DNA from: Methanocaldococcus sp. FS406-22
Lineage (GTDB): Archaea > AGJL01 > Methanococci > Methanococcales > Methanocaldococcaceae
DNA: 24,000 bases
Reading direction: 5' to 3'
NCBI RefSeq assembly: GCF_000025525.1
Contig: NC_013887.1
Location: forward strand, 110,729-134,728
This document shows, piece after piece, positions 22,585 to 24,000 of this stretch. The stretch's first letter is position 1. The number at the start of each line of letters is the position of its first letter. Position numbers and translations under genes: made by a program. Under the pieces are notes generated by a model, which was given only the letters and a program-made list of their open reading frames with translations, searched no databases and was not told where the DNA came from.

Positions 22585-22650
22585 TTATTTTCCTAAAGGA
22601 TAGTTAGGGGGTTCATTGGTAATAATGATGTCATGTGGATGGCTTTCAAC
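22585..22650 (-). pseudogene. Orphan second copy of the last 21 codons + stop of guaB
   Basis: The reverse complement reads GTT GAA AGC CAT CCA CAT GAC ATC ATT ATT ACC AAT GAA CCC CCT AAC TAT CCT TTA GGA AAA TAA ([21 protein letters not shown]). The functional tail 22717-22782 encodes [21 protein letters not shown]. 53/66 nt are identical, and 12 of the 13 differences are synonymous. Confidence 0.8.
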
Positions 22651-22716
22651 GAAAGGGCTTCTCCCCTTTTCAAACCCCAAGGATATCTCCGAGCGAAGCG
22701 AGGAGGTATAAAGAAG
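22651..22716. repeat. GC-rich double-hairpin insert E2 (related to 15034-15118)
   Basis: Hairpin 1: AAAGGG(22652-22657)-CTTCTC-CCCTTT(22664-22669). Hairpin 2: CTCC(22687-22690)-GAGCGAAGCGA-GGAG(22702-22705). It lies between the two guaB tails and is much more GC-rich than the surrounding spacer DNA. Confidence 0.5.
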
Positions 22717-24000
22717 TTACTTACCTAGTGGGTAATTAGGGGCTTCGTTAGTTATAATAATATCGTGTGGATGGCTTTCAACTTGTCCACTTGGTGTTAT
22801 AATTACAAATCTTGCCTTTTCTTGCATTTCTTTTAGATTTTTAGCTCCGCAGTAGCCCATTGAAGCTCTTAAACCACCAATTAGCTGGAATATAACCTCA
22901 CTAACAGCCCCTTTGTATGGGACAGCTCCTTCAACTCCTTCAGGTACTAATTTTACATGTTTCATATGACTTTTTGCTGATTGGAAGTATCTATCAGCTC
23001 CTGCTCCAACTCCTCCAGTCATAGCTCCTAATGAACCCATTCCTCTATACTGCTTATACTTCCTTCCATTGATAACCATTAATTGCCCAGGGGCTTCGTC
23101 AGTTCCAGCTAATAATGAACCGAGCATAACAGCATCTGCTCCAGCTGCTATAGCTTTAGCAATATCTCCACTGTATCTTATTCCCCCATCTGCTATAACA
23201 GGAACTCCACGTTCTTTAGCGACATCAGCCACTTCGGCAACGGCTGTTAATTGCGGAACTCCAACTCCGGCAACAACCCTTGTAGTACAAATTGAACCTG
23301 GCCCTATTCCAACCTTTAAAACATCTGCTCCTGCTTTAATTAAATCCTCCGCCGCTTCTTTAGTAGCTATATTCCCAACAATTAATTTTGTGTCAGTTCC
23401 CTCCAACATCTCTTTAAATTTCTTTACATTCTCAACAACCCTCATGTTATGAGCATGAGCACAATCAATGGCAATAGCATCGACCTCTGCCTCAATTAAT
23501 GCCTTAGCCCTCTTAAAATCATGAGGACCGCAGGCAGCTGCAACTAACAATCTTCCTTTTTTATCCCTTGCAGCCTGTGGATACTTTCTCCTCTTTAAAA
23601 TATCTCTTAATGTTATAATACCAATTAATTTATTTTCATCATCAACTATAGGCAATCTTTCTACTCTATTTGCATACATCAACTCTAAAGCTTCTTCTTC
23701 TTCAACATCTTCTTTAGCACAAACGACATCTTTAGTCATCACATCTTTAACCTTTTTTGTCTTGTCTTCAACGGCTTTAACATCTCTGTGTGTTATAATT
23801 CCAACTAATTTATCTTCATTATCAACAACTGGCAATCCGCTGATAGAGTATGTTTCCATAACATTTATTGCATCTCCAATAGTATCATCTGGAGATACCG
23901 TGATAACATCTTTAATAACTACTTCATCAGCTTTTTTAACTGCCTGAACTTGATGAACTTGCTCCTCTATGGACATGTTTCTGTGTATAACTCCCAAACC
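22717..24000 (-). CDS. guaB: IMP dehydrogenase with CBS pair, N-terminus outside the window
   Basis: The frame is open to the window edge (GGT TTG GGA GTT ATA CAC... = GLGVIHRNM). The track start at 23997 is an internal TTG. It carries tandem CBS domains, the catalytic loop [11 protein letters not shown], and [12 protein letters not shown]. Confidence 0.97.

Follow-up and report, generated by a model that had tools for sequence, protein, structure and literature searches.

Why does a gene for IMP dehydrogenase stand in front of a second copy of its own last codons, and where do the two copies come from? The question is raised by a window of 24,000 nucleotides (nt) from the heat-loving, methane-forming archaeon Methanocaldococcus sp. 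FS406-22 (contig NC_013887.1, positions 110,729 to 134,728 of the forward strand; positions below count from the first letter of this whole stretch), which holds the 3' part of guaB at its right-hand end. On the gene strand, the working guaB tail is followed by a 66-nt element of two hairpins (H1 and H2), a second copy of the tail, here called the orphan tail, a 19-nt spacer and a DUF131 gene. Tail, element and tail together span 198 nt (Table 1). The feature is real and recurrent, and it combines two things of known kinds, elements resembling repetitive extragenic palindromic (REP) sequences and surrogate gene ends. It probably reflects an old, polymorphic guaB allele that bears the element, spreads and is reshuffled by short-patch homologous recombination, stranding the resident tail each time.

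The duplicated guaB tail in FS406-22 and its relatives

The two FS406-22 tails (22717-22782 and 22585-22650, both on the minus strand) align without gaps, are identical at 53 of 66 positions and both end in TAA. Of the 13 differences, 12 are synonymous and one (GCC to CCC) replaces Ala by Pro. These coordinates and counts, given in a preliminary description of this DNA, were reproduced on re-alignment, as was the 17-mer GTTGAAAGCCATCCACA (plus strand TGTGGATGGCTTTCAAC) that both tails carry exactly. In a repeat search the pair is the longest two-copy direct repeat of the window. Shuffling the 800 nt around it 100 times gave best 66-mer matches of 38/66 at most (mean 33.5). When 13 random substitutions were simulated, none of 20,000 runs gave one nonsynonymous change or fewer.

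A scan of genome contigs listed at least four Methanocaldococcus loci, and the other genomes of relatives were reached through exact-protein look-ups, of which the one with the window's DUF131 protein gave no match; contig L084 is M. bathoardescens, and L086, L087/L088 and L089-L091 are groups of vent metagenome contigs. In eight related lineages (M. jannaschii, sp. 10A, 16A and 28A, M. indicus, a jannaschii-like metagenome-assembled genome, M. lauensis and a lauensis-like lineage) the site is empty, and a single tail without element leads into an AT-rich spacer of 25-86 nt and then DUF131. The 19-nt spacer of FS406-22 (22566-22584) aligns with these spacers and is the native guaB-DUF131 junction, as had been proposed from the distance between the orphan stop codon and the DUF131 start. 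Tail, element and tail are found in five lineages, as a single cassette in FS406-22, M. bathoardescens, L086 and L089-L091 and as a stack in L087/L088. In the stack, two tails (3107-3172 and 3241-3306) are each followed by an element, the first at 3173-3240 and the second, partly deleted, at 3307-3391; 22 nt left of a third tail close the row, and the gene-distal element is the more decayed. Empty, single-cassette and stacked states are the opposite of two tails present unchanged in all relatives, the pattern that the preliminary description had named as speaking against its interpretation.

The element is 67-68 nt long in the relatives against 66 nt in FS406-22, and its junction with the orphan, CTTTC/GTTGA, is the same across all five lineages. 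In M. bathoardescens (cassette at L084 11408-11606) the working tail is identical to that of FS406-22 at 66/66 positions, the element differs by an inverted H1 loop and four other changes, and the orphan differs from the FS406-22 orphan at 10 positions. The two M. bathoardescens tails differ from each other at positions 6 and 15, and those of L089 likewise differ at position 6. The earlier suggestion that the exact 17-mer acted as a crossover core does not survive the differences in M. bathoardescens. Other small elements were seen in two of these cassettes, one nested in the hairpin element of L086, the sister of FS406-22 (about 1541-1634), and a remnant in the older L087 element (3330-3391). 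In Methanothermococcus (L006 4293-4349; also L007, L008 and L010) a gene resembling a C/D-box small RNA lies directly downstream of guaB (Rfam snoPyro_CD, E = 8e-5, below the gathering score).

The silent character of the differences extends to all five pairs. Working and orphan tails differ by 12/1, 12/1, 13/2, 6/0 and 6/1 synonymous/nonsynonymous changes, each with P <= 3e-4. Because the differences are almost only synonymous, the sequences indicate that the two tails derive from two functional alleles and are not decay products. Variable sites fall on codon positions 1, 2 and 3 in the ratio 2:3:14 among the five orphans and 2:0:19 among the working tails. Four of the five non-third-position sites in orphans are private to a single lineage, the private changes being Ala to Pro in FS406-22, Asp to Gly and Ala to Val in L086, and Lys to Arg in L089. 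Variation mostly at third positions, with few and private amino-acid changes, argues that the orphans were working tails until recently; they would therefore have evolved as coding sequence for most of their history, with drift beginning only recently. The orphans of L086 and FS406-22 have orphan-specific silent variants in common and differ in their amino-acid changes, suggesting that stranding predates the split of these two lineages and decay postdates it.

An orphan tail could also be kept for a function, either as an alternative 3' end used after excision or splicing of a 132-nt unit, or as a promoter or 5' leader of DUF131. The unit is indeed 132 nt long, the FS406-22 element is an open frame of 22 codons, and reading frame and stop codon are intact in the orphans of all five lineages; the native guaB-DUF131 spacer measures only 19-55 nt, so DUF131 promoter elements may lie in the guaB tail. 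We nevertheless regard a retained function as highly improbable. The element length of 67-68 nt in the relatives does not conserve the frame, the working tail has its own stop codon, and the private amino-acid changes fit relaxed constraint. A promoter would not impose a third-codon-position pattern, the third tail of L087 is only 22 nt long, and eight lineages do without a second copy. Nothing indicates that guaB makes use of two alternative 3' ends, as the preliminary description had phrased it. Read-through of the stop codon into an in-frame coding element was rejected, the 66-nt open frame being particular to FS406-22.

Signs of recombination at the guaB 3' end

Between FS406-22 and M. bathoardescens there are no differences from 138 nt before the guaB stop codon to 15 nt into the element, while guaB elsewhere is about 10% divergent. 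The right end of this identical patch of about 150 nt falls inside the element, and differences resume after it. Judged from the alignment, it is a short patch of conversion. Over positions 22566-22880, compared with L084, FS406-22 guaB appears as a mosaic, with a 5' part of the 495-residue type common to sp. 10A, 16A and 28A and a last 138 nt that equal those of M. bathoardescens, whose gene is of the 496-residue type.

The tails themselves are divided in a similar manner. Compared with the sp. 16A tail, the FS406-22 working tail has 1 difference in its 5' half of 33 nt and 9 in its 3' half, and the orphan has 6 and 3; with sp. 16A or 10A as reference the counts are 1-2 and 8-9 for the working tail and 5-6 and 2-3 for the orphan. 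Across the element-free tails of sp. 10A, 16A, 28A and M. indicus, the 3' half of the orphan differs at 2-3 of 33 positions and that of the working tail at 7-9, in agreement with the view of the preliminary description that the synonymous excess points to a diverged functional allele. The two FS406-22 tails thus look like reciprocal mosaics of a resident allele, similar to those of sp. 10A and 16A, and a foreign one. The last 30 nt of the working tail and the first 15 nt of the element are common to FS406-22, M. bathoardescens and L086 and occur in no element-free lineage compared. Being confined to element-bearing lineages, this half of the tail would therefore travel with the element.

The course of events that we favor involves only homologous exchange once a cassette exists. 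The element-bearing allele would move between lineages by ordinary short-patch homologous recombination; on its entry into an element-free background, the left of the two crossovers would lie in guaB or its tail and the right one in the tail or further downstream. The gene would keep a partly foreign working tail, and the resident tail, functional until then, would be stranded behind the element and begin to decay, which would explain the 12:1 synonymous ratio. In FS406-22 both crossovers appear to have occurred inside the 66-nt tail, giving a working tail with a resident 5' and a foreign 3' half and an orphan with the reverse arrangement; alternatively, a single crossover with a circular copy would yield the same mosaic. 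Recombination between the two tails would delete a cassette cleanly, and unequal exchange would stack it. Of the two explanations offered earlier, a scar of allelic replacement is therefore the nearer fit, as recombination between element-bearing and element-free alleles, whereas a miniature integrative element of the integrase type left no sign, and no integrase was seen.

A different possibility is that a surrogate tail and the double hairpin form a mini-cassette, inserted in trans by a transposase of the IS200/IS605 type (Y1) or by an integrase at a preferred site in gene 3' ends, with stacks growing next to the gene as in integron arrays. The constant CTTTC/GTTGA junction and the stronger decay of the gene-distal element in the L087 stack agree with such an insertion. 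A cassette inserted as a unit accords poorly with an identical patch that runs 72 nt past the cassette edge and ends inside the element, which is typical of homologous recombination, with an FS406-22 working tail that is foreign in its 3' half only, and with a 17-mer core that M. bathoardescens does not conserve. We consider it improbable, though we keep it as a rival.

The age of the element is a separate matter from the age of each pair of tails. Overall the element diverges by 5-12% between lineages. Its 18 unpaired positions are approximately 6-33% diverged in a rough hand comparison, against 16-38% at neighboring guaB third codon positions. As the unpaired positions are about as diverged as synonymous sites, this rough comparison suggests that the element-bearing allele class is old and the stranding of each resident tail recent. 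An element much younger than the alleles was rejected, since on the same rough comparison the low overall divergence reflects conserved stems.

Table 1. Features of the guaB and ATPase_2 loci in the FS406-22 window.
Feature	Position	Strand	Remarks
guaB (IMP dehydrogenase), 3' part	22717..24000	-	Open reading frame (ORF) 22717-23997; Pfam IMPDH 1.7e-123 and CBS; runs past the window end
Working tail, last 21 guaB codons and TAA	22717..22782	-	5' half like element-free relatives; 3' half of foreign allelic type
TTGAAAGCC, left edge of working tail	22773..22781	-	
Double-hairpin element, 66 nt, REP/MJRE-like, decayed in FS406-22	22651..22716	-	Covariance model R1 match 22680-22714, E = 1.6e-8
Hairpin H1	22683..22709 (core 22687-22705)	.	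8-bp stem, loop GAGCGAAGCGA, apex GCGAAGC; fold
Hairpin H2, GAAAGGG...CCCTTTC	22652..22669	.	Substitutions weaken the stem relative to GAAAGGGGC-GAA-GCCCCTTTC of relatives
Orphan tail, second copy of last 21 codons and TAA	22585..22650	-	Untranslated; one private Ala to Pro change
TTGAAAGCC, left edge of orphan tail	22641..22649	-	Directly abuts the foot of H2
DUF131 gene, downstream of guaB	22290..22565	-	ATG at 22565
ATPase_2 / MJ1010-like gene	13939..15033	+	Working tail of the second cassette formed by its last 8 codons (15010-15033)
Second double-hairpin element	15034..15119	+	H1 15052-15078, H2 15094-15112 (loop inverted); fold z = -3.6; R1 E = 6.5e-12; hairpin scan
ATPase_2 orphan tail AATGCTATAAAAAGAGTGCTATAA	15120..15143	+	Equals the orthologue's working tail in M. 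bathoardescens at 24/24 positions

The part of guaB inside the window (22717-23997, minus strand) encodes 425 residues, which recur without any mismatch within the IMP dehydrogenase of FS406-22.

The double-hairpin element and its other loci

H1 has an 8-bp stem and H2 a 9-bp stem around GAA, and GCGAAGC occurs in both apexes. The two hairpins lie where the preliminary description had placed them, although in FS406-22 they fold weakly as DNA (z = -0.6 and +0.07 on the two strands). The M. bathoardescens guaB element folds strongly, with z = -3.2 and none of 200 shuffles as good, and values of -3.2 to -3.8 were obtained for this copy, the ATPase_2 copy of the window and the M. jannaschii copies. 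A search of the window with the H1 motif returned 2 matches against 0.02 expected. In an alignment of nine H1 copies 95.6% of cells are paired, with compensatory changes at 6 of 10 pairs, and a covariance model of H1 matched six independent loci within 251 kb of Methanocaldococcus DNA and gave no other match. The copies are short imperfect palindromes with stable hairpins, the FS406-22 guaB copy being decayed, and within the DNA sampled they are many, dispersed and mostly intergenic. By these properties the element is REP-like, and it probably belongs with the MJRE repeats of M. jannaschii, a presumed membership. No match to the window element was found in Rfam at gathering score or E <= 1, and the M. 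bathoardescens copy gave chance-level matches only. The window holds no tRNA as an integration target.

Loops that are reverse-complemented while the stems stay in place are seen between window positions 22683-22709 and L084 11481-11507, and also at window positions 15094-15112. Such inversions suggest template switching or recombination within palindromes, and their presence between close relatives argues for a palindrome acting at the DNA level rather than a strand-specific RNA. In M. lauensis (L334 15075-15400) and M. fervens (L337 7545-7870), at least five REP-like units of the H2 type are found per intergenic spacer, the unit being ATAGGGGC-GAA-GCCCCTAT followed by TGGTATACC. These clusters recall bacterial interspersed mosaic elements (BIMEs); in L335 the orthologous spacer has no more than about 50 nt. 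The 15-mer CCGAGCGAAGCGAGG occurs in hairpin contexts, often repeated, in many unrelated AT-rich viral and metagenomic contigs (L092-L330), and hairpins with a GCGAAGC apex may be a widespread repeat motif. The matches listed in pattern scans with CCGAGCGAAGCGAGG (viral contigs, and metagenomes with gapped GCGAAGC) were unrelated sequences rich in GC or in hairpins, and there was no Methanocaldococcus DNA among them.

The arrangement recurs. At the ATPase_2 locus the gene tail (15010-15033) and a copy (15120-15143) agree at 19 of 24 positions, both end in TAA, and between them lies the only other strong GC-rich hairpin pair that a hairpin scan found in the window; the preliminary description had rightly seen the guaB architecture repeated at 15009-15143 and had taken it as an argument for a recurrent mechanism. 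The window's ATPase_2 working tail matches that of the M. bathoardescens orthologue at 19/24 positions and the orphan at 24/24, and sp. 10A has an empty site. When second copies of gene tails were sought generically over the 400 nt downstream, 15 matches turned up, against 0.8 in shuffled controls; AT-rich matches in L004 and L085 resemble low-complexity chance, and not all 15 are element cassettes. In M. jannaschii, an MJ1609-like ATPase_2 paralogue has the same layout with a further element nested inside, and the Toprim gene MJ1624 is followed by a hairpin and then by a 39-nt copy of its tail, the differences being silent in 7 cases and non-silent in none. Empty MJ1624 sites are found in FS406-like contigs (L335/L336), M. 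fervens and sp. 16A. The element at the sp. 28A locus is reversed and has on either side a 45-nt repeat that takes in a stop codon, a ribosome-binding site and the start of the following gene; one part of this repeat is identical at 26/26 positions and the other differs at 5/16.

Several features of these loci could be explained by duplication in situ. Insertion of the element, or its later one-ended or local transposition onto a sister chromosome, would have duplicated 27-66 nt of upstream DNA, giving tails that were identical at birth, one of which was later overwritten by diverged alleles. The duplicated segments vary in length (66, approximately 43, approximately 27 and 45 nt) and have arbitrary-looking ends; the sp. 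28A repeat, which extends over stop codon, ribosome-binding site and next start, looks like a target duplication and not like a surrogate tail. In all four gene-tail cases the element borders on the stop codon (TAA, or TGATAAA) with its H1 side, and recombination able to overwrite one copy is directly seen in the patch between FS406-22 and M. bathoardescens. On the other hand, elements in plain intergenic DNA lack long repeats at their flanks, both upstream of MJ1624 and in the M. fervens cluster, which was set against two empty sites; insertion therefore does not by itself bring about the duplication. The gene-proximal copy is foreign and the distal one native in ATPase_2, where the orphan is nearer to the native tails of relatives (24/24 against 19/24), and in the 3' halves of guaB; the guaB working tail resembles the resident type in its 5' half, and Toprim is marginal (5 against 4 differences, a single position). 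In situ duplication would thus need the gene-proximal copy to be overwritten each time, and the uneven match of the two parts of the sp. 28A repeat does not look like uniform decay. We judge it unlikely, though still credible. A transposon that duplicates its target site was rejected, as the repeats are 27-66 nt long where present and no long ones exist at intergenic copies. An element carrying a terminal segment similar to its target, as the resemblance of an M. fervens copy to the MJ1624 junction might suggest, was likewise rejected, the empty sites showing that this segment is native flank.

The edges of the duplications bear on insertion by an enzyme. The 9-mer TTGAAAGCC has only 3 independent sites in 193 kb, two of which form the left edge of a tail duplication, in guaB and in MJ1624, and CTGGAATGC stands at the corresponding edge in ATPase_2. 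Together with the abutment of H1 on the stop codon, these edges hint at something more specific than recombination. Element and captured tail might then be a mobile, non-autonomous tail-swapping cassette, inserted by a hairpin-recognizing enzyme (e.g. a Y1 transposase of the IS200/IS605 type) at a TTGAAAGCC-like motif, restoring the gene and stacking with the newest copy gene-proximal; we hold this to be improbable. The elements have no conserved termini and, apart from the 9-mer, no common flank, and no cassette with a guaB tail is found at other TTGAAAGCC sites, where a fixed target would predict one. No candidate enzyme adjoins any copy. The 66-86-nt elements contain no recombinase gene and indeed no ORF, and the neighbors are guaB, DUF131, ATPase_2 and ferredoxin genes; trans-acting enzymes elsewhere were not searched for.

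One clue to such an enzyme, which would be consistent with both enzymatic insertion and in situ duplication, is that H1 aligns at 21 of 28 positions with the right-end hairpin of an IS605-family TnpB element of M. bathoardescens; H2 is unrelated to it. We take this likeness as a lead to a possible mobilizing enzyme and nothing more. The IS605-family TnpB (OrfB) element itself (L084 6226-7600) lies between GH57 and phosphomutase genes, is absent from M. jannaschii (L081 6220-6230) and has end hairpins CTCCACCC-TAAA-GGGTGGAG and CTCCGAGC-TAAA-GCTCGGAG. Two further kinds of small element were noticed. A miniature element with terminal inverted repeats ATAGGACTTTCACAG...CTGTGAGTCCTAT stands right after the ATPase_2 stop codon of M. 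bathoardescens (L084 approximately 19165-19282, minus strand) and is also nested in the double-hairpin element of the M. jannaschii ATPase_2 paralogue (L081 approximately 2765-2860), and a small element with inverted ends TTATAGTTGTGTGCAAAA is found in the NFACT spacer of sp. 16A (L339 approximately 7733-7860).

The spread of an old element-bearing allele by homologous recombination has its own difficulties. Homologous recombination alone cannot explain the first duplication at no fewer than four unrelated loci, nor does it explain why TTGAAAGCC forms the left edge in two unrelated genes. For the first duplication, we would most readily guess that sister chromosomes of these polyploid cells underwent unequal or one-ended exchange, by which the H2 end of an element standing behind the stop codon was joined to DNA a few dozen bases further upstream. 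Taking sp. 10A and 16A as a proxy for the resident FS406-22 tail is an assumption, and the mosaic is statistically clear for the working tail only (1/33 against 9/33). The FS406-22 and M. bathoardescens orphans already differ at position 6, which would leave almost no homology for a crossover beside the element, unless the differences are later mutations. The sample is small, with five guaB alleles that bear the element, three of which come from short metagenome contigs, and excision, stacking dynamics and transfer are read from sequence alone.

Small palindromic repeats of archaea are usually treated as inert filler, and here one is tied to a repeated structural outcome, the duplication of a gene end. 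The pairs of tails record recombination between lineages at near-nucleotide resolution and provide sequence evidence for frequent short-patch homologous exchange (about 100-150 nt) among hydrothermal-vent Methanocaldococcus. The guaB 3' end, being empty, single or stacked, offers a polymorphic marker for population studies, and it illustrates that a tiny element can occupy the end of an essential gene without harm. For annotation, orphan tails beside GC-rich hairpins in these genomes should be taken neither for small genes nor for assembly errors. If an enzyme acting on the hairpins does make the duplication, this would be a new mode of insertion, and a tail-swapping cassette, if true, would parallel integron cassettes, or homing elements with replacement exons, on a miniature scale and without a protein of its own.

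Comparison with known systems

Surrogate 3' ends are familiar from prophages. In phage 21 and e14, which integrate into E. coli icd, and in elements that integrate into tRNA genes, the incoming DNA supplies a replacement 3' end and the target gene stays intact. As at guaB, the icd prophages bring a surrogate end with many silent differences and leave the original end as an orphan at the far junction. Unlike the guaB element of only 66 nt, they are kilobase-sized and use a tyrosine integrase and an identical attachment (att) core, neither of which was seen here.

Transposons of the IS200/IS605 family insert without target duplication. With these and with their miniature derivatives, the palindrome-associated transposable elements (PATEs), the double-hairpin element shares subterminal hairpins in place of inverted terminal repeats and copies beside a short conserved flank; the link to IS200/IS605 consists of the hairpin similarity only. 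Diversity-generating retroelements resemble the guaB locus in having two near-identical gene 3' ends with a GC-rich hairpin after the first. They differ from it in that the guaB changes are silent, at third positions and of all types (C/T, T/C, A/T, G/C and G/A) and not adenine-specific, and no reverse transcriptase ORF is found in the region; this identity was rejected.

The closest parallel in layout is provided by the mitochondrial mobile ORF elements with a foreign C-terminus, described for Allomyces macrogynus atp6 and for Glomus atp6, atp9, cox2 and nad3 (PMC3630166). In both systems a gene body is followed by a foreign C-terminal piece, an element and the native piece downstream; the native piece is nearer to relatives, and the two pieces encode nearly the same protein in differing DNA (PMC3630166). 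The mitochondrial elements, at about 0.4-1 kb, encode a homing endonuclease. As only 66 non-coding nt without a nuclease separate the guaB tails, a homing-endonuclease mobile ORF was rejected here.

With respect to the hairpins, the nearest relatives are the palindromic repetitive elements MJRE1-3 of M. jannaschii (Suyama, Lathe and Bork 2005, FEBS Lett 579:5281, as cited in PMC2229807 and PMC2996958). Our literature search, whose reach did not extend to Suyama et al. 2005, returned no description of hairpin elements linked to duplicated gene tails. Unlike MJRE as described in PMC2229807 and PMC2996958, the element studied here is tied to duplicated gene 3' ends, stacks and allelic mosaics. 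Like MJRE1-3 and the bacterial REP and BIME sequences, it is a short, GC-rich, imperfect palindrome dispersed in the intergenic DNA of an AT-rich genome, and its copies combine low identity with conserved hairpins, form clusters at times (M. lauensis, M. fervens) and in some cases share the reading frame of genes.

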